IMG/VR virus record: IMGVR_UViG_3300028603_000035
From: an uncultured virus (IMG/VR IMGVR_UViG_3300028603_000035)
Taxonomy: Duplodnaviria > Heunggongvirae > Uroviricota > Caudoviricetes > Crassvirales
Length of the DNA: 20,000 bases
Reading direction: 5' to 3' (one strand)
A model generated the notes under the pieces. It worked only from the letters and a program-made list of their open reading frames with translations, did no database searches and was not told the DNA's origin. Position 1 is the stretch's first letter. The number at the start of each line of letters is the position of its first letter. The position numbers and the translations under genes are program-made. Below, piece by piece: positions 111 to 20,000 of the stretch.

Positions 111-117
111 AATTATC

Positions 118-1107: not shown

Positions 1108-1113
1108 AATATA

Positions 1114-2323: not shown

Positions 2324-2347
2324 AATGATTAAATTTAAATTGTTATT

Positions 2348-2398: not shown

Positions 2399-2409
2399 CA
2401 CCCCTTCTT

Positions 2410-3993: not shown

Positions 3994-4015
3994 TTTTATT
4001 TAATTTTTTATGTTA

Positions 4016-4738
4016 TTACTTTTTAGTAGGAATATTTGACGCTTCCTCATTCAAGAAACTTCTATACCTTTCTTCTTTTACTCTCTCTAAGTACAGCCTT
4101 ATACAATGGTTGAGGACTTCCTTTCGTTGAAAGTCATTCACATCGTCATAGCGTGTGTCGTTCCACTTACGTATATCGGAAGGTGTCATCGCAGGTGCTG
4201 GTGCTAACATCATATTAGGGTATCTGTAGTAGCTCACAAGAGCCTTAACGACATTAACCCTGCCATTGGTGTTAAAACGCACCTCGTTATTAGTCCTCAC
4301 ATAATACACCCTATTCTCACTCGGTCTTCTAAATACTGAATTACGAATAGTAGCTTCCTGTCCCGTACGCATAACGTGAACCTTCTTCCACTCACTTAAA
4401 CCTTTACGTTTACATCTATCGCAATATAAAGAATCGTAATCTACCTTAACCATAATATTAGCCATACGGAAGTATTTATGATTTAAATCTTTAATGGCAA
4501 ACTTATTATCTATAAGGTGCGAAAGCTCCTCTTTATATACTAATAGTGTTTCAAGGTCATCCATTTGCTTTGTAGTAAGCTCTATACCTTCTTTGATAGA
4601 CATATTATCGGCTATCCACTGCATCATACCCCACTCATTAAACAAACGTGTGAAGACAGCAGGATGAACAGTACCGGTGTATGTCTTCTTGATACCGTCT
4701 AAGAAGTAGGTAAACATTTCTTTGTTAGTATTCAACAT
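4016..4738 (-). CDS. Putative tail ring / adaptor protein (crAss-like)
   Basis: 240 aa. C-terminal YYRYP...KEVLNHCIRLYLE..RY pattern resembles crAss ring proteins encoded downstream of the MCP. Confidence 0.55.
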   Translation of the reverse strand: MLNTNKEMFTYFLDGIKKTYTGTVHPAVFTRLFNEWGMMQWIADNMSIKEGIELTTKQMDDLETLLVYKEELSHLIDNKFAIKDLNHKYFRMANIMVKVDYDSLYCDRCKRKGLSEWKKVHVMRTGQEATIRNSVFRRPSENRVYYVRTNNEVRFNTNGRVNVVKALVSYYRYPNMMLAPAPAMTPSDIRKWNDTRYDDVNDFQRKEVLNHCIRLYLERVKEERYRSFLNEEASNIPTKK

Positions 4739-4749
4739 AACATTATCGA

Positions 4750-5946
4750 TTATTCGTCAAACATCATTGCTTGTATCTCGCTTTCTAACTTCTTGTTTTT
4801 CTCTATCTCGAACAGCTCTACGAGTAGCTTACGTTTGTCGTCTATGTCTTCAATCTCCTTATAGCGGTCTTTATACTTATTGAACATACCGTTAGGAGGG
4901 TAAACGTGTGCGTTAAGACTTCTTAAATCTTTTTCGGCAACTTCTTTTTCAAACTCCTTAGTCTCGTATATCACTTTCTTCTTACCGACTTCACGATATA
5001 GAACGACATAGTCTTTAGTGTAAGTATCACCTATACGACCTTTGTATTCCTCCATAAGCTCCCCTGCCGTGAAAAGGTCGTCTTCTATTGAGGCTGCTAT
5101 TTTATCTCTTAGCTGGTCTAACGAGCATTTATCTTCACTTGCTGCCACTCTATCACTAATAAGAACATCGTAATAAGGTTCTACCTCTTTCAATGCCGTG
5201 TAAAGCCTGTCCTTCAACGAAGCATTAGCATCTAAGTAGGCGATAGCTTTTACCATTGTCGTACCTAAGTAAGCCGTTTCCTGACTACCTTCACGAACGA
5301 CATAGTTAGCTCCCTTCTTAACGATGAGCTTATGTTTGATACAGTAGGCTATAAAAAGCTGTTCCTTCACTTGAGGGTTGTGCTTAGTACTACTATTCAA
5401 GATAGCAGCGGGTGTCTTTTGTGCGGTCTTATACAACGCCGACAGCTTCTGATTGTCGGTATGTATTCCTTCCATATTGGTAACACCGGGTTGCAATGAC
5501 ACTAACAGAGTGAGAATATCTAAATCTTCCGTTTTAGTCTCCTTGATAACATCGAATGCTGCTGCCACCATATCAAACTCCTTAAGTTCTGCGTTAGCTT
5601 CCACCTCAGGGTCTATAATATAACCGTCGTGGATGCCGTCTCTGTATTCCACCTTTGACGCTGCTATCCTACCACTCAACAAGGCTGCCTTTATGATTGC
5701 CTTAGCCTCCGGATTGTCGGGGTCTATGTTCACATTATGCCTTATCTTATGCGGTACGTTAGGGTTTATCACAAACGGATACTTGACGCTTTGCTGTTCC
5801 GTCAACGGTTCTTCCCCTACCATCTGTTTATAGGTGAGGTCTTGACCCGTCAGAAACCTGCCGTTGTCTTCCACTATAGGTATAATATAACCCATTTTTC
5901 TTGCTGCTACGCTCTTTAACCAAAATCTTACTTTTCTATTACTCAT
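4750..5946 (-). CDS. Conserved crAss-like protein downstream of major capsid gene, function unknown
   Basis: 398 aa, helical; FIAYCIKHKLIVKKG..Y...LG.T...AIAYL segment; A-rich leader; synteny with the MCP. Confidence 0.6.
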   Translation of the reverse strand: MSNRKVRFWLKSVAARKMGYIIPIVEDNGRFLTGQDLTYKQMVGEEPLTEQQSVKYPFVINPNVPHKIRHNVNIDPDNPEAKAIIKAALLSGRIAASKVEYRDGIHDGYIIDPEVEANAELKEFDMVAAAFDVIKETKTEDLDILTLLVSLQPGVTNMEGIHTDNQKLSALYKTAQKTPAAILNSSTKHNPQVKEQLFIAYCIKHKLIVKKGANYVVREGSQETAYLGTTMVKAIAYLDANASLKDRLYTALKEVEPYYDVLISDRVAASEDKCSLDQLRDKIAASIEDDLFTAGELMEEYKGRIGDTYTKDYVVLYREVGKKKVIYETKEFEKEVAEKDLRSLNAHVYPPNGMFNKYKDRYKEIEDIDDKRKLLVELFEIEKNKKLESEIQAMMFDE

Positions 5947-5977
5947 ATCTTATTTTTTTAATTGTTAAATAACTCTT

Positions 5978-7480
5978 TTAATTGAATGCGTAAATGGTAT
6001 TCGGATTCCAAGGTCTCTCAACGATGAAAGGAGTGTTAAGAGAGATGATACCCACTTGCCACAACATATGTACGTGCGTACCGTCTACAGACGAAGCGAT
6101 GTTACCACCTTTGTCTATACCTGCTACCATACCTTTCACGCTCGGACGTAACGTACAGATAGTCTGTCCTTGTTGTCCTGCGGGAGTGTTACCTGTAGGA
6201 ATAATATATCCCATCCACTCATTGCTACGGCTTCCGTCATTCAACGGTATGCCTGCACGGTTTTTGAAATGGTCGCTTTCAAGCAACACCAAACGTATTC
6301 CTGAGAACTCATAATAGTTGTAGGTGTCTATAATGCCTGATTGCTCTCCACGTTTATACACCATATTTTGCACTTGAACGTGTTTGTTCTTACGTGCCAA
6401 GAAGCTGTTGAATGACATTTTAAGTCTACTACCGCATATCATCACTACTTCACGCAATCCTTCGTTATCGGTGCTTACATAGGGGTCTATCTCGCTCATA
6501 AACGACTCAAACCATTGGTCTGTAAAACCTTTAGATGTGATAGGAAAACGCATTGCTCCGTCGCCACTATACATTATACCGCTACCTGCTAACAACTCAC
6601 GTCCTCTTTCGTCTGTCAAGACGCATTTGTTGAGGTCTTGTGATACAGTAGTTTTACCTTCTAACAAAGCATTCTCTTGGAATTGAGCTGCTATACGTGT
6701 CATCTGATAGTCTGCTTCGGTGATGAAGGATTGTACTCCTCCGTGTTCCATAAAATATCCGGATACCTTTTTAGCTTTGTCGATAGCCGCTGCCGTTCCT
6801 GAATACGAATATTTGATACGTTGTAAGGTAAGATATGCACGACCGATAGCTCCTGCAAAGTAACGTTCGTTACCTCTTTCGGAGAAGTCTTGCTCGTGTA
6901 GAGTGTGAATCAATTGAAACTCCATACCGTCGGCAAGCAAATTTTTGTTTACCACATCGGCATACTCTCCCGATACCAACTTAACGAACAACTTATAAGT
7001 GTCGTTACTACTCGGTTCAGGGTCGTTGATGATAATCAACTGTGTCTGTCCGTCGGCAAGAACAATAACGTCTTTGTATCCGCTGACATTGTTATCAGTG
7101 AAAATCCAAAAACCTTCTTTCCCTTTACCGATATTATCGGCACTATTAAGGTCGTCAATATAGGTTTCTCCGTCGGCATTAGCCCTGAATAATCCGATAG
7201 GAATATCAGCTTTCTCGATACGATACTCAAGGACATTAGAACCTACGGCTCTATACTTACCTGTGATATTACCACTCTCGTCGAAAAAAGACGAAGAATA
7301 GTTAAGACCTCTTGTCATTTTATTTTTAGACACCAAAAACGACGTCAAAGGTGCTACGTCTTTGTGTGCCGACATAATAATAGGAACATAGTCGGCATTC
7401 ATTCTTCCCAGCTCCATCAACATCTTGGAACTGATACTTTCCTGTGCCACCACCTGTGGCGTTGAATTTAATCTTTTCAT
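5978..7480 (-). CDS. Major capsid protein (crAss-like, HK97 fold)
   Basis: 500 aa (about 55 kDa). Contains ENALLEGK, GSGIM and VVMICG segments in the order expected for crAss-type MCPs; sits after portal and an acidic scaffold-like gene; A-rich leader. Confidence 0.8.
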   Translation of the reverse strand: MKRLNSTPQVVAQESISSKMLMELGRMNADYVPIIMSAHKDVAPLTSFLVSKNKMTRGLNYSSSFFDESGNITGKYRAVGSNVLEYRIEKADIPIGLFRANADGETYIDDLNSADNIGKGKEGFWIFTDNNVSGYKDVIVLADGQTQLIIINDPEPSSNDTYKLFVKLVSGEYADVVNKNLLADGMEFQLIHTLHEQDFSERGNERYFAGAIGRAYLTLQRIKYSYSGTAAAIDKAKKVSGYFMEHGGVQSFITEADYQMTRIAAQFQENALLEGKTTVSQDLNKCVLTDERGRELLAGSGIMYSGDGAMRFPITSKGFTDQWFESFMSEIDPYVSTDNEGLREVVMICGSRLKMSFNSFLARKNKHVQVQNMVYKRGEQSGIIDTYNYYEFSGIRLVLLESDHFKNRAGIPLNDGSRSNEWMGYIIPTGNTPAGQQGQTICTLRPSVKGMVAGIDKGGNIASSVDGTHVHMLWQVGIISLNTPFIVERPWNPNTIYAFN

Positions 7481-7524
7481 TTTTTTAATTCTTTATTTAA
7501 TTTATTTTTTTTAGTAACTGCTGC

Positions 7525-8655
7525 TTAACGTTGAGAAAACGACTCTACCATCATATCTTTTATTTCCAAGTCAGGTTTTCCTGCTACGGCAGCACTCTGC
7601 TCCTTACTGTTATCTAAGCGGTCTAACATATCCCACTTAACCTTTTCCGTTAATAGTGTTGAATAGCTATCAAGTTTGCCTTTAGCTTTCATCCACAAGA
7701 AAGGTATAAGCTCGCTTATGGCTTCGGGGTTTTTTATCATCTCCGTCAGCTGCACCTCAGCGGGGGACATAGCAACCATATCTCCATTCTCTAACTTTAT
7801 CACTTCTCGCTTCATAAACGTAGGAATGTCTTTTAAGTATTCTTCTTTGTCGGATTGACCGAATTTGAAACCACCAAAGACATCTTTAGTCTTAGCTTGC
7901 TCTACAAACAATTCTAAAGCCTTCTCAGCGTCTTTATTGTATTTAGCTACGTTATCATTAAAAACTTTAGTTTGTTCGTCAAAAGCTCTCTTTCTATCGT
8001 CTAATTCTTTTTTTCTCAACTCCTCTTTGTAATCGGCAAACAATAGCTTCTTGTCAGCTTCGGAGAGTGAATTCAGCTTCTCCTCTACCTCGTCATCTGT
8101 TAAGTTGGCATCTGTGCCTTGTCCGTACTTCTTAGTATAGACTTCCCTTACGATTTCGTCGGTAGTCTTCCGACCACTACCACTGCCTTTATCTATATAG
8201 TCGTTAATATCAAATTCCTTATCAAAAGACTTGCTTATCAAGTCTCGGACAAAAGTGTCTACATCCTTATTGCTTCCTAACTGCACCCAGTCTAATATAG
8301 CACCGAAGATAGCAGACTTCTTATCCGCTATGGTATAATCCGTGCCGTCGGCTTTCTTGTCCGTGAAGACCGCCTTGTTGAAAGCTATCTTCAGATTATC
8401 ATCTTCTACGCCCTCGTTGAGGATATTAGATATGGCGTCTAAGTGAGACCCATAATCTATAACTTCTTCTGCCGTCGCACTTGATTGTTTACCTTCGCTA
8501 CCCTCAGGACTACTCTGTCCTCCTCCTTCTTTACCGCTACTACCGCCGTCAACACCTTCATCTCCCGACGGCATGTCTATTGCTACAGGCTCTTTGCCTT
8601 CCGCAAAAGGTGTTACGTCTAACATATCCTGTATTCCTAAATCTTGTTCTGTCAT
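7525..8655 (-). CDS. Putative capsid scaffolding / assembly protein
   Basis: 376 aa, very acidic, low-complexity G/S/E N-terminus and coiled-coil centre; immediately upstream of the MCP. Confidence 0.55.
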   Translation of the reverse strand: MTEQDLGIQDMLDVTPFAEGKEPVAIDMPSGDEGVDGGSSGKEGGGQSSPEGSEGKQSSATAEEVIDYGSHLDAISNILNEGVEDDNLKIAFNKAVFTDKKADGTDYTIADKKSAIFGAILDWVQLGSNKDVDTFVRDLISKSFDKEFDINDYIDKGSGSGRKTTDEIVREVYTKKYGQGTDANLTDDEVEEKLNSLSEADKKLLFADYKEELRKKELDDRKRAFDEQTKVFNDNVAKYNKDAEKALELFVEQAKTKDVFGGFKFGQSDKEEYLKDIPTFMKREVIKLENGDMVAMSPAEVQLTEMIKNPEAISELIPFLWMKAKGKLDSYSTLLTEKVKWDMLDRLDNSKEQSAAVAGKPDLEIKDMMVESFSQR

Positions 8656-8658
8656 ATC

Positions 8659-8680
8659 TTTTTTTTTTTTTTTTTTTTTT
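8659..8680. repeat. Homopolymer T22 (A22 on coding strand)
   Basis: 22 consecutive T at 8659-8680, ending 3 nt (GAT) before the ATG at 8655 on the minus strand. Confidence 0.9.
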
Positions 8681-8697
8681 AATAAATATTTTTTTCT

Positions 8698-9621
8698 TTA
8701 TCCACCTGAGCCGTAAGTAAGAGGTTTATCCCTTGCATCACGTCTTTTACTTCTTCTTTTTGTCTGAGCATAACGTCTTGCCGTAGCTTTATCGTAAGCT
8801 GCCTTGTTACTATCGCCTTTTTTCTCAAGCCACGCTCCTAAAGACTTTAATATTTCAGGGTCTTCGGCAGAGAGAGCATAAATCATATTGCTGATTTCAT
8901 TATCTCTATTCTCAGTCATAGAGTTCTGATAGTCCGACAAAGTCTCCCTTATATTAGTAATGTTCTCGCTCTGTGCCGCTCCTCGCATAGCCTCGTGCTG
9001 TGCGTGCATCTGCTCGTCGAAATGTCTGTTGCTGACGCCAAGTTGTATGCCTTGCATCATAGCACCCATGTTAGCATTATCGGCAGCCATTTTAAGTTCT
9101 GCATTCTTAGCGTCTATAGAACCTCGTATCTCAGCAGCCTTATTATCGGCTTGCTTCAACACGGTAGGAATAAGGTCTTGTCGTCCTGCTCCACGTAAGT
9201 TACGTATAGCAGCAATCTTGCCTCTGTTGATGTCTTGTAGGTAAGGGTCGGCACTGATACGTTGCCCTACCATAAAAGGAACATCGGGAACACTACCTCT
9301 CTGATACGGCGGCTCTTTCTTATTATGAAAATATTCAGCGATAGAGATAGCATCGTTAATGAGCTTGTTTCCTATAATATCGCCTTTATTCTTCTCTATG
9401 TTGTCTTGCATTTTAGCTACTACGGCAGCTTTGTAGTTAGCATCCTTACCGTTTTCTCCTGGTTTTAATTCATCTCCTGGTTTTTCTCCTGTTTCAGGAT
9501 CAGCAGTATTATTTGCTCCCACCGTAACACCTTCCTGAAAAGGACTACCCTCTATTTCTTTTTTAATTTTAAGAGCAAGGTCTCTAAGACGCTTTTTCGC
9601 TTTTTCTACTTCTTCATTCAT
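8698..9621 (-). CDS. Hypothetical helical protein (possible internal virion / ejection protein)
   Basis: 307 aa with an A/Q/N/M-rich coiled-coil centre (KQADNKAAEIRGSIDAKNAELKMAADNAN) and a basic C-terminus; starts 1 nt after the portal stop. Confidence 0.6.
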   Translation of the reverse strand: MNEEVEKAKKRLRDLALKIKKEIEGSPFQEGVTVGANNTADPETGEKPGDELKPGENGKDANYKAAVVAKMQDNIEKNKGDIIGNKLINDAISIAEYFHNKKEPPYQRGSVPDVPFMVGQRISADPYLQDINRGKIAAIRNLRGAGRQDLIPTVLKQADNKAAEIRGSIDAKNAELKMAADNANMGAMMQGIQLGVSNRHFDEQMHAQHEAMRGAAQSENITNIRETLSDYQNSMTENRDNEISNMIYALSAEDPEILKSLGAWLEKKGDSNKAAYDKATARRYAQTKRRSKRRDARDKPLTYGSGG

Positions 9622-9622
9622 A

Positions 9623-12313
9623 TTAGTTGTCTTTTAAATGTTCAGGGTTCTTCTTAGGCATAGCCTCAGCCTTCTTACTCTCAGCAGCAATCTTCTTAGT
9701 CTTAACGTTTAAATCGTTATCCAACGCCTTATTATCCAAACCGAGTTTGAAAGCGTTAAACAGAGCATCCAAACGCATCTGCATCGCCGTCAACCGTTGC
9801 TGTATGTTAGTACTCTTACTCTGTTCTGCAAGATAGCTCATCTCCACCTTATCCTCATTGGCAATCTTAGCAAGCTCTCTCTCGTGCTTCATATTCTCTA
9901 TATGTTGCTTCAACAGCACATTCTGCTCGTCCACCTGAGCCTTAGCCTGAGCTATGAAAGCAGCTATCTCAAGCTGCTTCTCAGCGATAAAATTATTATG
10001 CTGCTGTGCCTGCATCTCTAAGTCTACCTTAAACTGCTCTACCTCCTTAGCACTCTCCTTCTGTTGCTCTATAAGACTGCTTTGCTGTTGTTGCATAAGC
10101 TCGTTCTTCCTCTTTATTATCTGCTCTGTCTTCTTACGCATCTCCGTGATGCTGTCAATGTCTACAAGAACAGAAAGGTCGTGAGCGTCCAACGCTCCCT
10201 TAACATACTCATTCTGCAATATGCTTTTCATCATCTCAAGATTACCTTGCTCCTTAGTGCTATTATAAACATTAACCTCTATATCTACATCTTTAAATAA
10301 ATCTTCCGGAAGATAAAATATCTCTCTACCTTCCGTTCTATCGTTGAACTCCAAATAAGTGTTGTCTATCTTACCGTATTTAAGGTGTAACGACAACAAC
10401 TCATTGAGAGCTTTAGCTTCTATCTCATCGTGTTCTTCGTATAATATCTCCGTTATCAACGACGCCTGCTCTAAGGCAATCTCCGTGTTGCCGACAAGGT
10501 CGCCCTTCACTATCTGTGCTTGTCGCTGACGTGGAACACCGACTATCTCACCCATAGTCTCCTTTATCTGTATAAGCACATTATCGTAATACTGCACCGA
10601 CGACGACACCGTATTGTCAAACGACGTCCACTGATTAAAGCTGTTGTTAATCTTACGCCCTGAGCTGTCTACCGTCTGAATATACAGTCTCCCTTGTGCT
10701 ATGTTAGCCTCCCACTCGTCCATAAGCATACCGTCAGGCTTCTGACTCTTGTCTATAATCTGCCCCTTAGCTCCTGCAATAGCATAAGCAAGTTGCCGTA
10801 ACATATATATGCTGTTGTATAAGTCTTGTAAGTCTATAGTGTTCTTAATGATACTATACGGCTTGTCAAGCTGACTGCTGTGCGTACGCCCAAAGACAGG
10901 CAAGCAGAACTTAGCGTGTCTGTCCTTACTCCTGTTGACGAAAAGGTCTTTCCTAACATCTACTACCCACTCATTATTGATAACGACACAAGAATATCTA
11001 TCGTAAGTGTAACGCTTGATTATTTTTTCTGTCGCAGGGTCGTAAGTAACGACATCCGACGCAAGGTATCTATCAGTCTTATCATTCTTGTTTATATAAT
11101 AATAATCTTTATTATCTTCTGTTTCTACTTTAACATATTTGTATTTTTCTTTATCGATGACTACCTTATCCATAGGTATCATATGAATAAACTCTTTAAC
11201 GATAGCATCATCACGCATATTCTTAGACACCTTAAAGTTTACCTCTCTAAGCTCTCTGAACCATATACGCTCACGCTTGATGCCTTCTTCTACTATAATA
11301 TCTTTCTTACTATCTAACGCTCCCGTGTAGATAGCTCCGTGTCCGGGAGTGCTTATGAAGCTATGCTTATTCTCCACGTTAGGCAACGACTTCAAGATAG
11401 GCTGTTCTAAGTCCACACCTTCTTTCTTCAACTCATCACCGTACATCTCCTTGACGGCATCTTGCGTGATGGTGTCAACGACAGATACCCACGGCAAGTC
11501 TTGGATGTACTTTATACCCTTGACGTGCGGATACTTGATGTTAATACAGTTCAGGGTGTCATATTCGAGACGCTTGGTGTTCTCATTGACATATACCAAC
11601 CACGCCTCTCTACCTATTACCGCCTTCTGTTTGAAGTTAGATATGCTCTTAGCCTTGACCTCAAAAGTAGAACGTAGCTTAGACATAGCACGCTGTGCTA
11701 TCTCCTCACGGATGTCCTTATAGGAATAAGAATAATAATATTCTATCTTATCCTTCTCCTCTTGTGTGAGTTCTATCATCTCGTAGAACTGCTTCATTAT
11801 CTTTTGGAACTCGTGGTTCACTAACGGCATCTGCTGTACAAGTTGTTGTTGTTGTTGAGCCTCCTCCTCACTCTGAGGTTCTTTCTGTGCCATCTCCTGT
11901 ATCTGTTGCAGTCGTAGCTGTATCTGAAAGATATTATCCTCATAGAAGTCCACCATAGACTTACGCTTGTTCATCTCAGCGTCTAAGTACGCTTTCTGCT
12001 TAGCCTCCCACTTAGCCTTGACGCTCTCCTTGTCTACCGTAAACGTCGAGAACTGCCACACCCGCTTAGCCTGCTGGCTGATGAGGAGGTCTATGATAGG
12101 TCTCTGACACGGTATATGCACCGTATACATAGGCATACGTGCGTCGCCCTTCTTTATCATATACTCATACTTCTCACGGCGAGGTTCATTGTCATAATAC
12201 ATCCAATTGATGACATCCTGCTTGATAGCCGTAACAGTACGTGTCTCGGTGTTACCGATGACCTTAGCACGTTGCTTGACAAACTCCCGCATATTTTTAT
12301 TTTTATTCTTCAT
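9623..12313 (-). CDS. Portal protein (crAss-like, long C-terminal helical barrel)
   Basis: 896 aa between terL and MCP. Portal-like segments PIIDLLISQQAKR, DLQDLYNSIY and GEIVGVPRQRQAQI; long Q/E/K coiled-coil C-terminus. Confidence 0.85.
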   Translation of the reverse strand: MKNKNKNMREFVKQRAKVIGNTETRTVTAIKQDVINWMYYDNEPRREKYEYMIKKGDARMPMYTVHIPCQRPIIDLLISQQAKRVWQFSTFTVDKESVKAKWEAKQKAYLDAEMNKRKSMVDFYEDNIFQIQLRLQQIQEMAQKEPQSEEEAQQQQQLVQQMPLVNHEFQKIMKQFYEMIELTQEEKDKIEYYYSYSYKDIREEIAQRAMSKLRSTFEVKAKSISNFKQKAVIGREAWLVYVNENTKRLEYDTLNCINIKYPHVKGIKYIQDLPWVSVVDTITQDAVKEMYGDELKKEGVDLEQPILKSLPNVENKHSFISTPGHGAIYTGALDSKKDIIVEEGIKRERIWFRELREVNFKVSKNMRDDAIVKEFIHMIPMDKVVIDKEKYKYVKVETEDNKDYYYINKNDKTDRYLASDVVTYDPATEKIIKRYTYDRYSCVVINNEWVVDVRKDLFVNRSKDRHAKFCLPVFGRTHSSQLDKPYSIIKNTIDLQDLYNSIYMLRQLAYAIAGAKGQIIDKSQKPDGMLMDEWEANIAQGRLYIQTVDSSGRKINNSFNQWTSFDNTVSSSVQYYDNVLIQIKETMGEIVGVPRQRQAQIVKGDLVGNTEIALEQASLITEILYEEHDEIEAKALNELLSLHLKYGKIDNTYLEFNDRTEGREIFYLPEDLFKDVDIEVNVYNSTKEQGNLEMMKSILQNEYVKGALDAHDLSVLVDIDSITEMRKKTEQIIKRKNELMQQQQSSLIEQQKESAKEVEQFKVDLEMQAQQHNNFIAEKQLEIAAFIAQAKAQVDEQNVLLKQHIENMKHERELAKIANEDKVEMSYLAEQSKSTNIQQRLTAMQMRLDALFNAFKLGLDNKALDNDLNVKTKKIAAESKKAEAMPKKNPEHLKDN

Positions 12314-13149
12314 TGCCCAAACGCTCGTTTTAATTTATTTAACGTATTGCTCGGCACGCTACCTTCTCTATCTCTTATCGTCTTATCACTCTGCTGAAAC
12401 ATCTCTTTCGACGGATTGAAACTACCTATAGCAGGAACATCGCTACCTCCTGTGTATTTATAGTCGGAAACACTACGCCTTTCGTTGCCTGACAACCTCT
12501 CTTTCGTGTAGTCATAATTTTCATAATAAAAATCTTTATATAAATCACTATCGCTATATACATTCCATTTATTATTACCGAAATTAGCTCTCGTCCTATC
12601 AAAGTCATATCTACCTTCTACCATAGCTCTAAGCTGTGCCATCCGTCTTTTTACGCCTACATTACCTTCTAATCCTTCACTCCTACGTGATATATGCTGT
12701 GCTATCCTTCTACGAGAAGCGGCACTGTAACCGTCCTTCTCAGCAGCCTTGATAGCATCCCATATCTTCTCATCGGAAGGACTACCACCATAAAACATCA
12801 TTCTTAAAGCCGTAGAGACATCATCAGGCATTTTTGATATATCCACACCTTTTGATTTAGAAACCCTCTCAAAAGCCTTTATTTTCTCTTTAAAGACACC
12901 TTTCGTTAGTTCAAGAGCCTCCTCCTTAGTAATGCCGTCAGCATAATCACCCTCCCACACACTTATATCTTTGTTATCCGACAGCTTATAACCATAACCT
13001 ATAGTCCAATAACCCATAGTATCCCTGTAAGGCTTGTCTTTAAAACCCTCTCCCGACATGATATACTTAACCATCTCGTCCTCATCGAAAGGGATATTCT
13101 TACCTTTCTTGCTGTCTTTAGGATTATATGTCATTATCATATCCGTCAT
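12310..13149 (-). CDS. T4-type (GH24) lysozyme-domain protein with C-terminal extension
   Basis: EGFKDKPYRDTMGYWTIGYG gives E-x8-D-x5-T, the spacing of T4 lysozyme E11/D20/T26. Start placed at ATG 13149 (ATGA overlap with the terL stop) rather than 13170; its TGA overlaps the portal ATG. Confidence 0.8.
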   Translation of the reverse strand: MTDMIMTYNPKDSKKGKNIPFDEDEMVKYIMSGEGFKDKPYRDTMGYWTIGYGYKLSDNKDISVWEGDYADGITKEEALELTKGVFKEKIKAFERVSKSKGVDISKMPDDVSTALRMMFYGGSPSDEKIWDAIKAAEKDGYSAASRRRIAQHISRRSEGLEGNVGVKRRMAQLRAMVEGRYDFDRTRANFGNNKWNVYSDSDLYKDFYYENYDYTKERLSGNERRSVSDYKYTGGSDVPAIGSFNPSKEMFQQSDKTIRDREGSVPSNTLNKLKRAFGQ

Positions 13150-15221
13150 ACCACCACCCTCACTAAACATCCGTCAATTTCTTTCCACACATACTGTGGT
13201 TCTGTAGTCTTAAGACTGCTATCTTGTATCTCTAACAACTCTGTCTCCTTGAAAGCTATCAACGCCATCGCCGACGCCATCGTTATATCACAGTTGTACT
13301 GCCTACCCGGTCTGTACTTAAACTTACTAAAAGCTAATATCTGTCTCGGTATCCACAACCTGTTAATCTGGTCTTCATCCATCATATCTCTAAAATTACT
13401 AAGCACATAAGGTTTTAGTGCCTTGTCAGTGCCGTACCTATTAGAAGCCTTATTGTCTTTTATCTGTCCCGCAAACGTCAACGACGGTCTTTCCAACAAC
13501 ATATTAGCCTTACCCATCTTCTCGTAATACTCAAAGATAAACGGATTAACAAACTCTATATTGTTAGTAGAATTATAATATATCGATAGCATCAGAGTAT
13601 GCTCGAAGAACCTATTCTGCCCGCCCGTGTCTATACTCGGACGCTCCAACAGCAAAGCCACATAAGTGTTAAAAAACGGACTTTCACTCTTATTACGCCA
13701 TTTCTTATATACCGTTACAGCCCCTAATGAGTCGCTGGTCTCACTCTCATCCTGATTATAAGTGTCCGTACCTTGCATATATAAGTTGACATACACCTGT
13801 TCGTCTAAATTAACCTCAGGTTCTTCCACTATCTCTAACCACCAATCTTCTCTCATCAGCTCGTCCTCTGTGGCGTCAACAAAATAAACACCGTCTTTTA
13901 TACTCCCTGCTTTCTTCCATTCAAGACGCCCTTTCCTCGTTATCTGTGCGTCCTTATGTGTGAGGATATAATTATATCTCTCCGTCAACAGCCGTCGTCG
14001 CTCCGGACCCAAATAGCCCGCCGTCGTACTTTGGAAAACGTCGTCTAAGAAGATAGCCTCCGTAGACTGATGCGTGTACTTCTGCTCCTCACTCTTACCT
14101 TCCGCCTCCTTCTTGATAGCAGCGATGCTCTCAGCCTTCAACGCATTGCCGTCGCTGTCTACTATCTTATACATCCACTTAGGATTGAAATGTGCTACCT
14201 TAACGTCGCCATCATAGCCTTCCTTAGCCCACTTATTGGTAAACGACAAGATGTTATGCCTATCAGGATTATAAGCTCTCTCCTGTAAATCATAGACACC
14301 TTCTTCCATTTCACCGCCCGTGCCGATGAAAAGCTGATAGCCTGTCTTCTTATCTTCCACTTTAAGAGACGGTGCTGCATAACGCTGTACCTTCAAGCTC
14401 CAACCCTTCTTACCCTTACCTACCTCCTCATATACTATCAGCGTAGGAGCGTAACGGCTTAATGCCTGCGGGTCGTCATTAGCATTCTCAGTGAACACCT
14501 CAGAGCCGTTAAGCGACATTATATGCTTTTTGTTGTCGAAACCACGCTTACGCTGTAAGTAAAACTGCGTGTTGCTAAGCTCATCCAACCCACGAGTAAC
14601 ATTATTGAAAGTGTTGTCGGCATCGGTCTGCTCGCCTGCAACGATGATATTTTGGCTCATAGGCAAGAACAGATAGTTATACGCTAAGTCCATACCCGCT
14701 AACTTCTCACTGAAGCCTATCTGTCGTGCTTTGGTCTCTTGGTTGTCTTTCTTAAAACGTACCATCATCTCACGGCGGAAGCTATACATAACGTCCAACA
14801 TAAGAAACTTAGGTTTTATCAATGTCTTGGTAACAGCACCGTCAGCAAGACCACGTATACGCCAAAAGTTGAGGTAGAAGTAATACCGCCCGGATATGTG
14901 TACAGCTCTGTTCTTAAATGTAAGTTCATATTCCGGGAGGTAGCAGTCATCACCAGCCCATAGAGCGTCTATGCCGTCAACGATAGCGTCGCCACCGTAG
15001 TCGACAGCATTCTGAACCGTATAGCCGTAATAACAACGATACAGTTGCCTACGCCACCACTCCTCGTCAATAACGATATTGTTATCGGCGTGATACTCTA
15101 TACGCAGTTTCTTGTTCAGACCGACAAGCTCCTTAGCTTCCTTAAACAGTAGGTCATTAGCCTTAGGAAGGTCTTCGCCGTTGGCGACAGGAGCAAATCG
15201 TTTTGTGTCTATGAATCTCAT
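13146..15221 (-). CDS. terL: Terminase large subunit
   Basis: 691 aa. crAss-type ISGRYYFYLNF motif, Walker A KARQIGFSE, Walker B LIVYEEVG, coupling motif FIGTGG, nuclease acidic residues in QGTDTY, NIEF and NCDITMA. Confidence 0.93.
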   Translation of the reverse strand: MRFIDTKRFAPVANGEDLPKANDLLFKEAKELVGLNKKLRIEYHADNNIVIDEEWWRRQLYRCYYGYTVQNAVDYGGDAIVDGIDALWAGDDCYLPEYELTFKNRAVHISGRYYFYLNFWRIRGLADGAVTKTLIKPKFLMLDVMYSFRREMMVRFKKDNQETKARQIGFSEKLAGMDLAYNYLFLPMSQNIIVAGEQTDADNTFNNVTRGLDELSNTQFYLQRKRGFDNKKHIMSLNGSEVFTENANDDPQALSRYAPTLIVYEEVGKGKKGWSLKVQRYAAPSLKVEDKKTGYQLFIGTGGEMEEGVYDLQERAYNPDRHNILSFTNKWAKEGYDGDVKVAHFNPKWMYKIVDSDGNALKAESIAAIKKEAEGKSEEQKYTHQSTEAIFLDDVFQSTTAGYLGPERRRLLTERYNYILTHKDAQITRKGRLEWKKAGSIKDGVYFVDATEDELMREDWWLEIVEEPEVNLDEQVYVNLYMQGTDTYNQDESETSDSLGAVTVYKKWRNKSESPFFNTYVALLLERPSIDTGGQNRFFEHTLMLSIYYNSTNNIEFVNPFIFEYYEKMGKANMLLERPSLTFAGQIKDNKASNRYGTDKALKPYVLSNFRDMMDEDQINRLWIPRQILAFSKFKYRPGRQYNCDITMASAMALIAFKETELLEIQDSSLKTTEPQYVWKEIDGCLVRVVV

Positions 15222-15247
15222 AATGCCTTTTTATAAATGAAAACTAA

Positions 15248-15961
15248 TCACAACTCCGCTTTTAAATACGTCTTCTGAGCCTCTTTCTCCATAGCGTGAT
15301 ACTTCTCTAATAACGACATACCGTCGTACTTAGCTCTTAATTCTTCTTTCTCTATCGCTGCCCTACGCAATGCCTCGTCGTACTGCTTGGACAACTTGAA
15401 AGCCTTCTCAATCTCTTTAACTAACAAATCGGTGTTATACACCTCTATACGTTTCTTGACGACACCGCTGAACTTATTGTCGGGTATCTTAACGTACTTA
15501 TCTTTGTCTTTCTTATATATGTCAAAATTATACGACGCCTCGTAAGGTATCTCTATCTCTTTGTTGGTTACCAACTCCAAGTTAGCGATACGCTCCATCT
15601 CGACGGCGATAGCCTCTTTAATCTTCAAGGCAAGTCTCTCCTCGACGCCCATCTGCAACGTACGATACATATCAACGAAACGGATGATACGCTTGTTGTC
15701 GGCGAAGCTACGAGGGAACTTACCGTCGAAATAACTTTTCTTGACAAGCTCTCTACGTTCGGCGTCCGGGAGGTTGGCAAGCGGATGCACCCTGCTGTAC
15801 AAATGATAGGTGTACTTACATACCTTATGAAAGAAAGACTTGTCGCCTATCTTATCATAAAGCCACAGGTCGTACACGGCAGGTATCTGCATTGCCTCCT
15901 GAACAACGCTAACGTCGCCCGTCTCCTCGTCTAATATGAACATAATATCTTTCATCGACAA
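15248..15961 (-). CDS. Conserved crAss-like protein upstream of terL (putative small terminase)
   Basis: 237 aa, helical. IP...LW..DK..DK.....Y.Y..Y...P pattern resembles the crAss gene adjacent to terL; the small-terminase role is inferred from position only. Confidence 0.5.
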   Translation of the reverse strand: MSMKDIMFILDEETGDVSVVQEAMQIPAVYDLWLYDKIGDKSFFHKVCKYTYHLYSRVHPLANLPDAERRELVKKSYFDGKFPRSFADNKRIIRFVDMYRTLQMGVEERLALKIKEAIAVEMERIANLELVTNKEIEIPYEASYNFDIYKKDKDKYVKIPDNKFSGVVKKRIEVYNTDLLVKEIEKAFKLSKQYDEALRRAAIEKEELRAKYDGMSLLEKYHAMEKEAQKTYLKAEL

Positions 15962-15964
15962 TAT

Positions 15965-16327
15965 TTATTTAAACAACAGAAATATGGTGTCTATCCCCGA
16001 CACATAAGCAAGAAGAACACCAAGAATAACAAACGTCAAAAAGATAATTCCTAACTTAGGATGTCTGCTAAAGAAATGTAGAGTGTCCATTTCGCTGACA
16101 ATCTTCTTTAAACAAACAATTTCTTCATTATTGTTCTGTATAGCCTTATTGTTCTCTTCCAATATACGGATATTCTTGTTGAGCTTCTGAAGCTCCTCGC
16201 TTGTCTCCATCTGTTTATCCTTAATCTGTTCAAACCTATCTTCTATCAACTTCGACAAAAGTATAATAGCTTTATTATTCTTATCGCCTTCAGTAAGCAC
16301 CTCTATTTTATCCGTAATATCACACAT
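15965..16327 (-). CDS. Coiled-coil protein with single C-terminal transmembrane segment
   Basis: 120 aa; heptad-rich centre followed by hydrophobic LGIIFLTFVILGVLLAYV. Confidence 0.7.
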   Translation of the reverse strand: MCDITDKIEVLTEGDKNNKAIILLSKLIEDRFEQIKDKQMETSEELQKLNKNIRILEENNKAIQNNNEEIVCLKKIVSEMDTLHFFSRHPKLGIIFLTFVILGVLLAYVSGIDTIFLLFK

Positions 16328-16330
16328 CTT

Positions 16331-16636
16331 TTATATCGCATTAAGATAATTATGTACCGCCATAGCCCCTTGTTCGGCTATACTCCACGGCACTAACACT
16401 CGTGAATGAAACAACTCCTTATGAAACTTGCCGTCCTTGTCAAACCACGTGCATATAAGCCCTACGAGCTTAGACGCAGGCTTAGTCTCAAAGCCACTGC
16501 CATCCTCTTTCTCCTTATAAGGGACTTCCGTTTTCCTATATACTATCTCCTGAACCGTCATCGGCTGATAGAGATTGTTCTTATAAGCAACGTCATCGCC
16601 TTCCCTGAACTTAACCTTAACTATATCTCCACTCAT
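16331..16636 (-). CDS. DUF2158/YodC-like small protein
   Basis: 101 aa; FREGDDV...PMTV...ICTWFDKDG.....F....L matches the DUF2158 pattern F-x-x-G-D-x-V...M-T-V...C-x-W-F. Confidence 0.7.
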   Translation of the reverse strand: MSGDIVKVKFREGDDVAYKNNLYQPMTVQEIVYRKTEVPYKEKEDGSGFETKPASKLVGLICTWFDKDGKFHKELFHSRVLVPWSIAEQGAMAVHNYLNAI

Positions 16637-16658
16637 ATCTCTACTGTTTATATTTTTT

Positions 16659-17093
16659 TTACTCCTTATCCTCTTTAACGATAGCAGCTATGTCCACCTC
16701 ACGGATGAAATGAAAGACAGAACCGTCATAAATGAAAGTGTCGTTAGGATTGGAACGTAACAACACCTTATCGCCTACGGCAACATCACTCTCTATCTTG
16801 CTCCCTACCGCTAACACCTTGCCATACGCCATACCAAAAGGAAACATATCTTTGAAATCCATAATAGAAAATTCATACTTATTGTTATAATTATGATAAA
16901 TGTTCTTATGGCTCACAAAACCGTTCTCTTTGTATTCTTTAGCATCAGGAAGGTTCATCACTAAACCTATAATAATGGCGTCGGCACGAGGGATTATACC
17001 TTTAGGAAGCTCCCTACCCAAACCTAAGTTAAGTTGTTCGTAAACCTTAGCTTTGATGTCGCTCTGTTTTTTCTCTTTACTCTCTGTACTCAT
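16659..17093 (-). CDS. groES: GroES/Cpn10-like co-chaperonin
   Basis: IIPRADAIII and GKVLAVG...DVAVGDKVL...IREVDIAAIV align with GroES IRPLHDRVIV and GEVLAVG...DVKVGDIVI...MSESDILAIV. Confidence 0.85.
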   Translation of the reverse strand: MSTESKEKKQSDIKAKVYEQLNLGLGRELPKGIIPRADAIIIGLVMNLPDAKEYKENGFVSHKNIYHNYNNKYEFSIMDFKDMFPFGMAYGKVLAVGSKIESDVAVGDKVLLRSNPNDTFIYDGSVFHFIREVDIAAIVKEDKE

Positions 17094-17113
17094 AATCTTT
17101 AAATTTTAAAAAT

Positions 17114-17641
17114 TTATAATAACATTTTTTTATCATCATTACTTTCTTCTTTAACACGTTTTGTATATTTACGCTTTTGCTTCTTATCTTCCTCCGACGC
17201 CAAGAAGCGTTTCAGAATCCCTATCTTCTCTACGAACTCCACGTTAAGCACCCACACAAAGAAACGTAACACCTTGCTCTGTGGAAACAATATAGACAGG
17301 TTCTTAAAGCCGTTGACAACATAAAACCATATAGTAACAACAGATACTATAATGACTATGTTCTGCGTGAAGAATTGGTCTTTCATCAACTTTCCAAGTG
17401 TAAATAGAAAGACGATAAGAAAGATATATACGGCAAATAATGCCAATGCACGCTTACCGCCCTCACGACTTACCTTTGCTTGTTTTAATATCTTACTTTT
17501 GATTACCCCGATAAGAAGGTCAAATAAGAATGCTAATGCTACAGCTAATAGCGTAGCGCCAATGGGATTATAAAAACCTATTATCATAGCAGGCAACCCC
17601 ATTAAAAATACTGTAAATGTTTTTAAATAATTCAATTCCAT
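17114..17641 (-). CDS. Putative holin (phage holin 4-like)
   Basis: 175 aa with 3-4 hydrophobic segments, D-L-L-I-G motif and a highly charged C-terminus; directly downstream of the amidase. Confidence 0.75.
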   Translation of the reverse strand: MELNYLKTFTVFLMGLPAMIIGFYNPIGATLLAVALAFLFDLLIGVIKSKILKQAKVSREGGKRALALFAVYIFLIVFLFTLGKLMKDQFFTQNIVIIVSVVTIWFYVVNGFKNLSILFPQSKVLRFFVWVLNVEFVEKIGILKRFLASEEDKKQKRKYTKRVKEESNDDKKMLL

Positions 17642-17647
17642 ATCTAT

Positions 17648-18244
17648 TTATTTTTTATTGTTTTCTTCTTTAATATAATTCTCTATTCCGTCAGCGATAG
17701 CGGAAGACATAACGTCTTTCCATAATTCCGACATCAACAATTGACAGTTCTTAAACGTATCCATAAAGCCTATCTCTAATAGCGTGGCTGGCATCCACAC
17801 CTTACGAAGAATGTATAGGTTGGTACGCTTCGCCTGATACCCACTACTGACATCACCCTTACGTAGCTTATAATTCGGCAACACCCAACTGATAAAATTA
17901 TAAATATGTTCCGCTAAATCCAACGCTTTGGTCTTACCCTTTATAACGTGAGCCTCGAAGCCAAAGCCCTGCTCAGGTTTCTTACCTGCATTGGCGTGAA
18001 CACTAACCAATATCGATTTTTCCTTTATTTCATTAGCTCTAACAGCTCTTTCCGACAAAGATATATCCTTATCCTCCGAAACCAAGATGTGCGTTCTAAT
18101 GCCCTTGAAATTCAATTTAGAGGCTATCCTATAAACCATATCACGATTAAACTGCCACTCGAACAACTGCGTGCCGTCCGACCATATAGGACTTCGCTTC
18201 CCTGGCGTATCTATACCGTGTCCGTTATCCAATATTACTAACAT
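17648..18244 (-). CDS. N-acetylmuramoyl-L-alanine amidase endolysin (Amidase_3)
   Basis: Zn-binding and catalytic motifs ILDNGHG, FEW.FN, LSER...AN, SVHANA and LLEIGFMD. Confidence 0.93.
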   Translation of the reverse strand: MLVILDNGHGIDTPGKRSPIWSDGTQLFEWQFNRDMVYRIASKLNFKGIRTHILVSEDKDISLSERAVRANEIKEKSILVSVHANAGKKPEQGFGFEAHVIKGKTKALDLAEHIYNFISWVLPNYKLRKGDVSSGYQAKRTNLYILRKVWMPATLLEIGFMDTFKNCQLLMSELWKDVMSSAIADGIENYIKEENNKK

Positions 18245-18441
18245 TATAACCTATTTGCGTTTAATAAACTATTTTCATAGGCTTCTTTTTCTTCCGCTGT
18301 TGCTTCTCTGTAATTGTCTATATTGATTGTTTTTGCATGCATTTCTTTTGCAAAGAATCTATCAACCACATCTCCTTTTTGTGTAATGTAGCCTTCTTCG
18401 GCTATTAGTTTTTCGTTTTTTTCTAAAATAATAAGTTTCAT
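18244..18441 (-). CDS. Small hypothetical protein (possible fibre assembly helper)
   Basis: 65 aa between the LRR gene and the amidase; TAATG overlap with the amidase start. Function inferred from position only. Confidence 0.65.
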   Translation of the reverse strand: MKLIILEKNEKLIAEEGYITQKGDVVDRFFAKEMHAKTINIDNYREATAEEKEAYENSLLNANRL

Positions 18442-18453
18442 TTCATTTTATTT

Positions 18454-19920
18454 TTAAGCTGTTATTACGATCCAGTTTTTATCCGTTGCAATTGATGTTG
18501 TGCAAGTTGCTGCACCCGGATTGCCTTTTACATTTATTGTCTGTTGTGCAAGAGCGGTTAAATCCTTCAAGTCTGTAAATAGCGCATTTATATTCGCTGC
18601 ATCCATATTCGAGTTTTCAATTGAAAACGATAATGGAACGTTTGGAAGTCTACACATAGATAGAGTATAATTAGATTGCGTAATGGATGTATTGTTTGTT
18701 ATTGAATTGAGATTACTCAAGCTTAAATCAATGCTTTGTAAGGAAGTGCAATAATAAAACATATTTGCCATATTTGTAACATTCGAAGTGTTAAAAGAAC
18801 TTAAATCAATGCTTTGTAAGGAATAGCAAGCATTAAACATATATTGCATATTTGTAACATTCGAAGTGTTAAAAGAACTTAAATCAATGCTTTGTAAGGA
18901 AGTGCAAGCATTAAACATATATCGCATATTTGTAACATTCGACGTGTTAAAAGAACTTAAATCAATGCTTTGTAAGGAAGTGCAATAATTAAACATATTT
19001 GCCATATTTGTAACATTCGACGTGTTAAAAGAACTTAAATCAATGCTTTGTAAGGAAGTGCAATAATTAAACATATTTGCCATATTTGTAACATTCGAAG
19101 TGTTAAAAGAACTTAAATCAATGCTTTGTAAGGAAGTGCAATAATAAAACATATTTGCCATATTTGTAACATTCGACGTGTTAAAAGAACTTAAATCAAT
19201 GCTTTGTAAGGAAGTGCAATAATAAAACATATTTGCCATATTTGTAACATTCGACGTGTTAAAAGAACTTAAATCAATGCTTTGTAAGGAAGTGCAAGCA
19301 TTAAACATATTTGCCATATTTGTAACATTCGAAGTGTTAAAAGAACTTAAATCAATGCTTTGTAAGGAATAGCAATAATAAAACATATATGACATATTAG
19401 TACATAAAGTCGTCTGTTGATATGCTTTGAATTTTTCCAAAAATATAGCCTTGCAATTATTATACATCAATATCCGAGATATATGCGTTCCGCTAATGCT
19501 TATATCTAACCAATTTGATGACGATTGGTAATGTATATCTGCACTATGTTTATTTCCAAGATTATATTGCGTTATGTGCTGTCCAGCCTGTGGAGTTACG
19601 GTAATAATAGCCTGTTTATTCCCTCGCTCACATATAGTCGAATCAGGCAAATCATCATAATCATAGACATGTTCAGCATTCGCATTGCTTGCGAAATTCT
19701 CAACCGTTCCATCTCCCCAATCAACCGTGCAATTACCTGTTATTACCATCGTGCAATAATTGTTAAAATAATTATTAGCTACATTGGCAGCATCCCACAC
19801 CGCATATAAACCGACCATTTTCTCTTCCCCCTCCGTAATTAAGTGTTCGATTTGTAACCATTCTAATGGTCTTACATAGCCGCCTTTAATGCTAAATGTT
19901 GCATTTGTTCTTCCTATCAT
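18454..19920 (-). CDS. DUF285/BspA-type leucine-rich-repeat protein with PKD-like domain (putative receptor-binding / fibre protein)
   Basis: 488 aa. VDWGDG...HVY PKD-like motif; nine 26-aa repeats TNMxxMFxxCxSLQSIDLSSFNTSNV; C-terminal cap (GNPG...IATDKNWIV). Confidence 0.85.
   Translation of the reverse strand: MIGRTNATFSIKGGYVRPLEWLQIEHLITEGEEKMVGLYAVWDAANVANNYFNNYCTMVITGNCTVDWGDGTVENFASNANAEHVYDYDDLPDSTICERGNKQAIITVTPQAGQHITQYNLGNKHSADIHYQSSSNWLDISISGTHISRILMYNNCKAIFLEKFKAYQQTTLCTNMSYMFYYCYSLQSIDLSSFNTSNVTNMANMFNACTSLQSIDLSSFNTSNVTNMANMFYYCTSLQSIDLSSFNTSNVTNMANMFYYCTSLQSIDLSSFNTSNVTNMANMFNYCTSLQSIDLSSFNTSNVTNMANMFNYCTSLQSIDLSSFNTSNVTNMRYMFNACTSLQSIDLSSFNTSNVTNMQYMFNACYSLQSIDLSSFNTSNVTNMANMFYYCTSLQSIDLSLSNLNSITNNTSITQSNYTLSMCRLPNVPLSFSIENSNMDAANINALFTDLKDLTALAQQTINVKGNPGAATCTTSIATDKNWIVITA
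18722..19398. repeat. 78-bp tandem repeat, about 8.7 copies, encoding the LRR units
   Basis: CTTAAATCAATGCTTTGTAAGGA recurs at 18722, 18800, 18878, 18956, 19034, 19112, 19190, 19268 and 19346 (exact period 78). Confidence 0.97.
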
Positions 19921-20000
19921 TTTATTTTAATTATTAAAGGTAACGTAATTGATGTGTTAACTTTACTGTATATGGTTATTTTCCCATTATCAACAAGACA
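19917..20000 (-). CDS. 3' end (partial) of upstream gene
   Basis: Open frame from the window edge, ...CLVDNGKITIYSKVNTSITLPLIIKIK-TGA; the stop overlaps the LRR start as ATGA. Confidence 0.65.
   Translation of the reverse strand, partial: CLVDNGKITIYSKVNTSITLPLIIKIK

Follow-up and report, generated by a model that had tools for sequence, protein, structure and literature searches.

A leucine-rich repeat protein carrying a mosaic repeat array in an exchangeable cassette of a crAss-like phage: a probable tail-appendage adhesin

The stretch of DNA analysed here (the window) comprises 20 kb of the 74.6-kb contig of an uncultured crAss-like phage, IMG/VR record IMGVR_UViG_3300028603_000035; the other 54 kb or so lie beyond it. 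A gene on its minus strand codes for P0001, a protein with nine nearly identical leucine-rich repeat (LRR) units in tandem. We consider it probable that P0001 is a virion-attached LRR adhesin, receptor-binding or accessory, which belongs to an exchangeable tail-appendage cassette and in which the variable residues are shuffled by recombination between the repeats. Comparison of sequences reveals the mosaic composition of the array, the turnover of its unit number and haplotypes, an excess of amino acid change at six positions of the unit, and the mobility of the cassette.

Tandem Repeats Finder places the array at 18722–19402 (period 78, 8.7 copies, 94% matches, zero indels), in frame within the gene. 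The units start at 19401, 19323, 19245, 19167, 19089, 19011, 18933, 18855 and 18777; the ninth is partial, its match ending at codon 18–19. A sequence-only reading of this DNA had described nine units differing at nine of 78 nucleotides, with eight non-synonymous sites in five codons and one silent site. Codon-level alignment agrees with this description and reproduces both the list of alleles and the order of the silent site. The variable nucleotides of the unit (10, 11, 13, 22, 25, 26, 31 and 32) fall in codons 4, 5, 8, 9 and 11, only at first or second codon positions, and all are non-synonymous. The ninth, nucleotide 69, is silent in a Thr codon (codon 23) and reads T,G,G,T,G,G,T,T over the eight full units. 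One additional edge base varies, in the first codon of unit 1. The mean identity between units is 0.937, and the array is the most uniform among 346 arrays of at least four units (229 sequences). There is no extra unit copy, template-like copy or donor cassette elsewhere in the 20-kb window. The count of five variable codons is correct for the window, but codon 2 is a sixth variable position in the orthologue described below and in the family. The Tyr/Asn-rich alphabet noted earlier is likewise a local feature; viral arrays in general have Ser 30%, Asn 16%, Gly 10%, Thr 10% and Tyr 8% at the variable positions (2755 positions).

The array unit is the known PARCEL/DUF285 (PF03382)/TIGR02167 LRR. 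P0001 matches DUF285 with 225 bits (cut-off 25, E 1e-67) and TIGR02167 with 343 bits (cut-off 30) in nine stretches (E 4e-105). No signal peptide is apparent by eye. Two units together show no excess DNA folding in comparison with shuffled sequences (z −0.08), a test that differs from the MEME palindrome test of the PARCEL paper.

A structure model based on an alignment of 12 sequences has a mean predicted local distance difference test score (pLDDT) of 78, with values of about 90 across most of the array, mostly 70–95 in the N-terminal domain from residue 20, and low values in the C-terminal cap. An alignment-free model is poor outside the array (pLDDT 53.6). The best structural match is 4fs7 (Z 20.3, root-mean-square deviation 3.5, 306 aligned residues) and the top Foldseek matches in the PDB are all LRRs. 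A strand recurs at unit positions 15–17 in both models, which corresponds to the LxxLxL strand lining the concave side of LRRs. These observations bear out the LRR solenoid proposed from the sequence.

The LxxLxL strand is invariant in the array, non-synonymous polymorphism (pN) being 0.000 at positions 14, 15 and 17. In alignments, the variable codons fall on the xxAFxxCxxL segment of 4gt6 and on the inter-strand segment of FBXL2, i.e. on the non-concave side. Invariant positions 3, 6, 7, 10 and 13 alternate with variable positions 2, 4, 5, 8, 9 and 11 in an amphipathic pattern; since successive units stack in the same phase in a solenoid, the variable residues probably form one exposed stripe on the non-concave side. 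Structure prediction had been proposed as a check on whether these residues line one exposed face: the alignment places them outside the concave strand, but the two models differ for codons 4–11.

The genomic context points to the tail. A siphovirus contig carries an orthologue with ten units and 61–66% identity; the genes for the tape measure, Dit, a hub-like and a fibre-like protein precede it, and those for a holin-like protein and an endolysin follow. The C-terminal 146 amino acids of the upstream gene are 60% identical between this siphovirus and L003, another contig with an orthologue of P0001. The nearest virus record, G001, is 99.76% identical to the window over positions 1–18319 and unrelated beyond; its slot contains the end of an unrelated gene and a 36-codon remnant of the small partner gene, upstream of the amidase gene (G001:C1:1–111, L229). 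In each of the four runs compared, contigs depart from the window sequence at 18319. By these comparisons the appendage slot has been swapped, with a breakpoint within the small partner gene. A 495-amino-acid protein, P0154, shares its shaft segment with the upstream fibre and has a fused LRR-like domain in place of the short C-terminal domain, which fits an LRR placed at the fibre end.

The same layout, consisting of the N-terminal domain, the array, a conserved C-terminal motif and a small following open reading frame (ORF), is found in nearly all of 35 loci; in most relatives the ORF after the LRR gene codes for 50–150 amino acids. Neighbours were scanned at 25 of the 35 loci (81 hand-picked proteins). 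There is a PHROG tail-class neighbour in 17 loci, head and connector genes in one, only endolysins in two and nothing informative in five. Location in a tail or fibre module, as for receptor-binding proteins, is thus found for the siphovirus orthologue and at 17 of 25 loci, and only indirectly for the window itself.

Two side observations concern the surroundings of the LRR genes. ORFs of 108–109 amino acids lie directly upstream of the LRR gene at L089:9624–9947, L094:1469–1792 and L097:9627–9953, with similar ORFs in L100, L102, L116, L120 and L135; the three scanned match N-terminal parts of the tail-fibre families phrog_693 and phrog_1276, and might be separate attachment adaptors. Just past the lysis genes of the siphovirus there is an ORF of 399 amino acids (L081:12716–13915; L082:12716+876 region), which by eye resembles a protein of the IS605/TnpB family.

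The same shuffling could take place in a non-essential adherence or decoration protein of the capsid or tail surface, which would bind biofilm matrix or particles rather than an infection receptor. The slot is replaceable, as seen in G001; the scanned neighbours at L131 are a head–tail adaptor and a head protease, the best match at L121 is a head-decoration family, and two DUF285 proteins of a tailless giant virus, AaV_052 and AaV_382, were detected in virions (PMC7507832). The tail-class neighbours at 17 of 25 loci and the fibre position of the siphovirus copy argue against such a role, and rapid diversifying change would better suit a contested host ligand. We regard it as unlikely.

L003 encodes a close orthologue. 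The N-terminal domains differ at three of 173 codons, all non-synonymous. The L003 array has six units instead of nine, with framework DNA that is the same except for the silent site, and the framework of codons 12–18 is identical in all 15 units of the two arrays. L003 has other alleles at the same variable codons and, in addition, at codon 2. Each array has six haplotypes, of which none (0/6) is common to both, and 47 of the 54 codon alleles of the window occur in L003 at the same position. In the window, pN at the five codons is 0.32 and synonymous polymorphism (pS) 0.036; the corresponding values for L003 are 0.38 and 0.00. Among the first and second positions of the five codons 8/10 vary in the window, against 0/7 third positions in codons 4–11 (Fisher p = 0.002; codons picked post hoc). 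In the 15 pooled units the figures are 10/10 and 0/7 (p = 5e-5; codons chosen from the window).

The C-terminal cap differs from that of L003 at 10 of 90 codons, seven of the changes being non-synonymous, and contigs of runs X5 and X6 carry more divergent caps. In view of these caps and of the much lower difference in the N-terminal domain, the cap may be under selection or swapped too. There are two to nine units in 12 homologous proteins, including two pairs, each from a single 90% cluster, that differ by one unit; some of the shorter ones may have collapsed in assembly. When viral contigs were searched with single sequences, no close relative covering the whole LRR gene came up, and one terminase relative ends before it.

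A search with an alignment as query found a relative encoded by 406 of 535 candidate stretches in viral contigs, and the best 80 were retained. There are 172 distinct arrays of at least six units, 30 of them with at least 80% internal identity. At the five codons, pN exceeds pS in 28 of these 30 homogeneous arrays, and all 30 contain incompatible site pairs (see below). When pS is restricted to codons 4–11, pN is the larger in 22 of the 28 homogeneous outside arrays. The per-site selection check proposed earlier, run here as pN against pS, thus has a positive result for the window, L003 and most homogeneous arrays, though not for all in its local form. Over the whole set, pN at the five codons exceeds pN at the concave-strand positions in 168 of 172 arrays. 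The pairwise difference in the 28 outside arrays is 0.00–0.02 at positions 3, 6, 7, 10 and 13 and 0.52–0.61 at positions 2, 4, 5, 8, 9 and 11; the low difference at positions 3, 6, 7 and 10 is partly imposed by the search pattern.

The 30 homogeneous arrays include five from unassigned metagenome contigs and four from genome contigs. Two of the latter (L168 and L170) resemble the phage cassette and two lie in a Flavobacteriaceae genome, L203. These two (L203:7281 and L203:9704) are long, uniform PARCEL arrays of 19 and 29 units of 25 amino acids, in which pN at the corresponding positions is roughly fivefold pS, and represent a cellular case. Hypervariability and mosaicism belong to the repeat family as such and do not set this phage apart.

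Neutral concerted evolution, in which slippage or conversion homogenizes the units, purifying selection keeps the core and exposed positions drift, would be another account. Roske et al. described variable hydrophilic positions in such proteins and ascribed near-identical blocks to recent duplications (PMC2996958), and in arrays with less than 70% identity pN is about equal to pS at these codons (median ratios 0.8–1.1). Drift, however, should affect silent sites equally, which is not the pattern of the pooled units, and variation is absent from exposed concave-strand positions in both the window and L003. This makes a neutral origin very improbable.

The mosaic itself was examined at the level of site pairs. 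The four-gamete (compatibility) test is failed by 12 of 36 pairs. The shortest tree of the eight distinct haplotypes has 15 nucleotide steps against a floor of 11; at codon level the excess is three steps, four when the silent site is taken in phase with the following unit and two on the five codons alone. Duplication with recurrent mutation was simulated (20,000 runs per event number, ten sites), as a simple neutral null without selection toward few residues. At least 12 incompatible pairs arose in 0, 0.0002, 0.001, 0.005 and 0.02 of the runs at 10, 12, 15, 20 and 30 events, respectively. The statement that simple serial duplication does not suffice without recombination or recurrent mutation is therefore upheld.

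Close relatives provide a second line of evidence. There are 39 pairs of genes with N-domain identity of at least 95% (65 distinct genes); the unit number differs in 36 pairs and at most two haplotypes are common in 33. These pairs are not independent, since 36 of the 39 come from one nine-gene cluster. As with L003 and the 12 homologues, both unit number and haplotypes change between close relatives, in agreement with what alignment of orthologues had been expected to reveal. In the nine-gene cluster, a sister cluster, six lineages were compared: of 522 codon alleles, 492 are present at the same position in some other lineage, but of 87 six-codon haplotypes only four are shared in this way. 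Linkage is clear only for adjacent codons (4–5, z 3.1; 8–9, z 3.7), the 13 other pairs having z from −0.9 to 2.2. Shared alleles, mostly unshared haplotypes and linkage of adjacent codons only are as predicted by recombination at a grain of a few codons. Together with the incompatible pairs, the extra tree steps and the simulation, these data strengthen the earlier proposal that sub-repeat recombination reshuffles a small alphabet. The pattern amounts to concerted evolution and diversifying selection combined with shuffling below the level of the repeat.

A group of large-phage genes (L130–L133, L139, L149, L154–L157 and L161) has N-domains that are 95–100% identical and near-disjoint arrays of 12–18 units of 24 amino acids. 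Of the natural data sets, this cluster is the one best suited to measuring the shuffling.

Slightly less probable than the neutral account, in our estimate, is an assembly chimera that joins units of co-occurring strains. Among the contigs listed from four runs none spans the array, the longest exact repeat within it is 120 nt, and chimeric repeats produced by SPAdes are documented (PMC11761791). One protein, P0005, combines the flanks of P0002 with two units; its second unit is a hybrid made from two units of P0002, which may reflect an assembly collapse. However, nine of the 12 incompatible pairs lie inside a stretch of 23 nt, which is below usual assembly k-mers, so that a path through the assembly graph should not be able to join them. 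Three array pieces of 53–61 nt match contigs of run X1 without difference (X1 may be the source sample), and identical genes occur in separately deposited records in eight groups of relatives, although the samples may be common. A chimera may account for the order and number of the units, as opposed to the mosaic within them. In run X6 the contig depth is about 457 on the amidase side and 44–46 at the LRR gene, which hints at a minority cassette; summed depth is not copy number and is not counted here as evidence.

The least probable source of the variation is a diversity-generating retroelement (DGR) that mutates the units from an unseen template repeat. DGR mutagenesis is adenine-specific, and the alleles of the window and L003 at codons 2, 5, 8, 9 and 11 all have T as their last base and could arise from AAT through changes of adenine, which makes this origin worth testing. 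DGRs are present in some crAss-like phages (PMC10136315), and the part of the contig beyond the window leaves a small doubt. On the other side, codons 4, 13, 14 and 18 each end in an adenine that is the same in all 15 units, contrary to adenine-specific change, alleles recur instead of arising anew each time, and a template-like copy is absent from the window. There is no RVT_1 match in the window, in G001 (29% complete) or in 50 related virus records, 13 of which are at least 90% complete (the control is positive in three of 14 genomes); these include complete genomes with uniform variable arrays (L083, L095 and L140). A DUF285 search of G001 gave no match, and its controls were equally silent, so it shows nothing on further copies.

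An adhesin shuffled by inter-repeat recombination could work as follows. The 26-amino-acid units form an LRR solenoid in which the core and the concave strand are fixed and positions 2, 4, 5, 8, 9 and 11 vary. Judging from the sequence pattern, 78-nt units that are nearly identical recombine out of register, either inside one genome or between relatives in a co-infection; this keeps the framework uniform, adds and removes units and breaks units at the scale of a few codons, leading to shared alleles in new combinations. In-register slippage during replication would be an alternative route of shuffling. Selection for amino acid change at the exposed positions would be the cause of the excess of pN over pS. 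Variable residues in the same phase would stack into a stripe opposite the concave strand and bind a variable host glycan or outer-membrane protein, and the N-terminal domain would dock the protein onto the end of the upstream fibre. As an additional layer, the entire cassette (fibre C-terminus, LRR protein and small partner) is swapped between phages. Neither a reverse transcriptase nor a donor cassette would be required. We infer receptor binding and an effect on host range for P0001 from its context, as well as its location on the virion, its docking and its binding face.

Several points weigh against this interpretation. The variable face has been located through alignment and strand assignment rather than coordinates, and for codons 4–11 the two models give different secondary structures. 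Lysis genes are the direct neighbours within the window, and the upstream gene lies mainly outside it; eight of the 25 scanned loci are without a tail-class neighbour among the selected proteins, a selection made by hand. The local comparison of pN with pS is failed by six of the 28 outside arrays. Because the same pattern is found in the non-viral arrays of L203, it is by itself no sign of a receptor-binding role in phages. Recurrent mutation to favoured codons, with epistasis between neighbours, may contribute to the sharing of alleles. No recombinase is common to five near-complete relatives (RecT in 2/5, RecA-like in 1/5, ERF in 0/5 and Rad52-like in 0/5). Finally, the order and number of units are provisional, as no contig among those listed from the four runs spans the array, and short-read assembly can yield chimeric repeats, including in the similar fungal repeats.

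The minus strand of the window is a single gene run of a crAss-like phage, with genes for a crassvirus-type major capsid protein, portal, terminase, lysozyme, a GroES-like protein, a holin-like protein and an amidase. There is a match to PF23898 with 34.9 bits (cut-off 27), and the family scan gives PHROG matches to terminase, portal and head proteins. The LRR gene is the first complete gene of the run; its features and flanks are reported in table 1. The phage is found in metagenomes from landfill, bioreactor, wastewater and biogas, and at least half of its sequence words are present in 20 of the 24 runs listed.

Table 1. Features of the LRR gene and its flanks in the window.
Feature	Position	Strand	Description
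LRR gene	18454..19920	-	488-aa PARCEL/DUF285 LRR protein P0001, probable tail-tip adhesin; DUF285 and TIGR02167 matches, 4fs7 fold match
N-terminal domain	19402..19920	-	residues 1–173, beta-sandwich-like, conserved in the phage family; probable attachment part
Repeat array	18722..19401	-	78-nt (26-aa) unit in eight full copies and a partial one; constant framework; variation in codons 4, 5, 8, 9 and 11; silent site in codon 23
C-terminal cap	18454..18721	-	residues ~400–488; end motif conserved across the family; poorly modelled
Small partner gene	18244..18441	-	65 aa; shares 62.5% identity (56 aa) with the gene that follows the siphovirus orthologue
Slot exchange point	18319..18320		G001 identity stops and contigs diverge here
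Upstream fibre-like gene, 3' end	19917..20000	-	stop overlaps LRR start (ATGA); C-terminal part travels with the LRR gene
Endolysin (Amidase_3)	17648..18244	-	downstream flank; family match
Holin-like gene	17114..17641	-	downstream flank; PF05105 below cut-off; phrog_15037, also matched by the siphovirus gene

The N-terminal domain and the 65-amino-acid partner match no Pfam or PHROG family at a useful score. Structural look-alikes of the N-terminal domain are mostly viral; a PKD label on 11% of two clusters is a lead only. The partner has seven representatives at E ≤0.001, two of which are long repeat proteins and probably chance matches; that it is a chaperone or a cap is a guess. Promoter and terminator predictions are at chance level (13 vs 12.8 and 1 vs 1.3). 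Elsewhere in the run, a GroES-like (Cpn10) gene lies at 16659–17093, between the holin-like gene and the terminase region, and there are two cell-wall hydrolases, the lysozyme at 12310–13170 in the terminase/portal interval and the amidase, which adjoins the holin-like gene. In G001, a 2170-amino-acid ORF (L231:319–6831) lies beyond window position 1 and extends the phage structural module.

PARCELs were defined by Roske et al. in 2010 as elements of cellular membrane proteins, in which near-identical blocks are infrequent and represent recent duplications (PMC2996958). P0001 has the same repeat, a variable number of units, conserved hydrophobic and variable hydrophilic positions and a proposed shuffling in common with PARCEL proteins. 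Unlike those described, it is encoded in a phage structural module, is without a signal peptide and combines pN above pS with mosaics below the unit. DUF285/PARCEL genes are annotated in 120 GenBank phage records, and there are matches in BFVD too; coverage of the query stays below 80% in each of the 120 records, and nothing in that collection matches the N-terminal domain. Viral DUF285/BspA genes include ORF200 and ORF287 of vB_VhaM_pir03 (PMC7765460). The accessible portions of this report and that on the giant virus (PMC7507832) describe the same family as here and contain no test of function, tail role or diversification mechanism.

The gp38 adhesin of Straboviridae is monomeric, modular and variable, and from the distal tail it sets the choice of receptor (PMC12032242). 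It is a model for docking on a fibre end, as would apply to P0001, for which homology is not expected. Appendage genes of Crassvirales diversify through DGRs and duplication of BACON repeats (PMC10136315). Their tail spikes are equally fast-evolving and exchangeable, but BACON repeats are duplicated as whole domains and DGRs act by reverse transcription; the portion of that source used here makes no mention of an LRR array. Searches of the open-access literature brought up no report of repeat shuffling in a phage LRR adhesin.

A similar process is documented in fungal HNWD/NLR proteins with repeats of high internal conservation (HiC; WD40 in het-d and het-e, as well as ANK and TPR), in which units are more than 85% alike and evolve in concert through unequal crossing-over (PMC4986451, PMC11761791). 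For fungal non-self receptors, shuffling of binding residues between solenoid repeats of near identity is established. Repeat number is polymorphic in these genes, and three to five codons per unit are under diversifying selection on the binding surface (PMC4986451, PMC11761791). The phage array agrees with this description in its unit identity, in the range of two to nine units among homologues and in its few hypervariable codons. The fungal sensors differ in being intracellular and eukaryotic and in having WD40, ANK or TPR folds with the variable sites on the usual binding surface; no LRR was found in the survey of these repeats. P0001 matches DUF285 and LRR families only, with neither NACHT or NB-ARC nor WD40, ANK or TPR domains. 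By analogy, the fungal HiC repeats are the closest published mechanism; P0001 would work like them and is not a member of the group. In fold, the TpLRR/BspA-class LRRs 4fs7, 4gt6 and 4h09 are the nearest solved structures (Z 20.3, 16.7 and 16.0). They are 17–19% identical to P0001 and are cellular surface proteins with shorter, diverged units.

Variable lymphocyte receptors (VLRs) in jawless fish are built somatically out of donor cassettes, with their variation on the concave face, and transcription activator-like effector (TALE) repeats follow a code of one repeat for one base. Both share modular repeats, few variable residues and a constant frame with the phage array, and the sequence-only reading had proposed them as a loose analogy. 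The analogy has limits: unlike in VLRs, the LxxLxL concave strand is invariant (the face being assigned by alignment, not coordinates) and there is no donor cassette in the 20 kb, and unlike in TALEs there is no sign of a residue code. The fungal HiC repeats are closer.

Known routes to a new host range in phages include point mutation, module swapping and invertible segments. DGRs are another such route (PMC10136315). We suggest, tentatively and at somewhat less than even confidence, that unrelated tailed phages, in the hundreds, share a plug-in LRR adhesin, the receptor surface of which would be diversified by self-recombination at near-codon scale and displayed on the non-concave side, changing host range within a population. 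This might be a counterpart of DGRs that is free of reverse transcriptase and a viral parallel of the shuffling of fungal het genes. Each part is known already; new are the way they are combined, how far this has spread and how fast it proceeds. Should the protein bind the host, DUF285, a large family whose function is unknown, would gain a role open to testing, and nature would supply an LRR library in which six positions of each unit vary. The slot at which short-read assemblies break would be explained as well.

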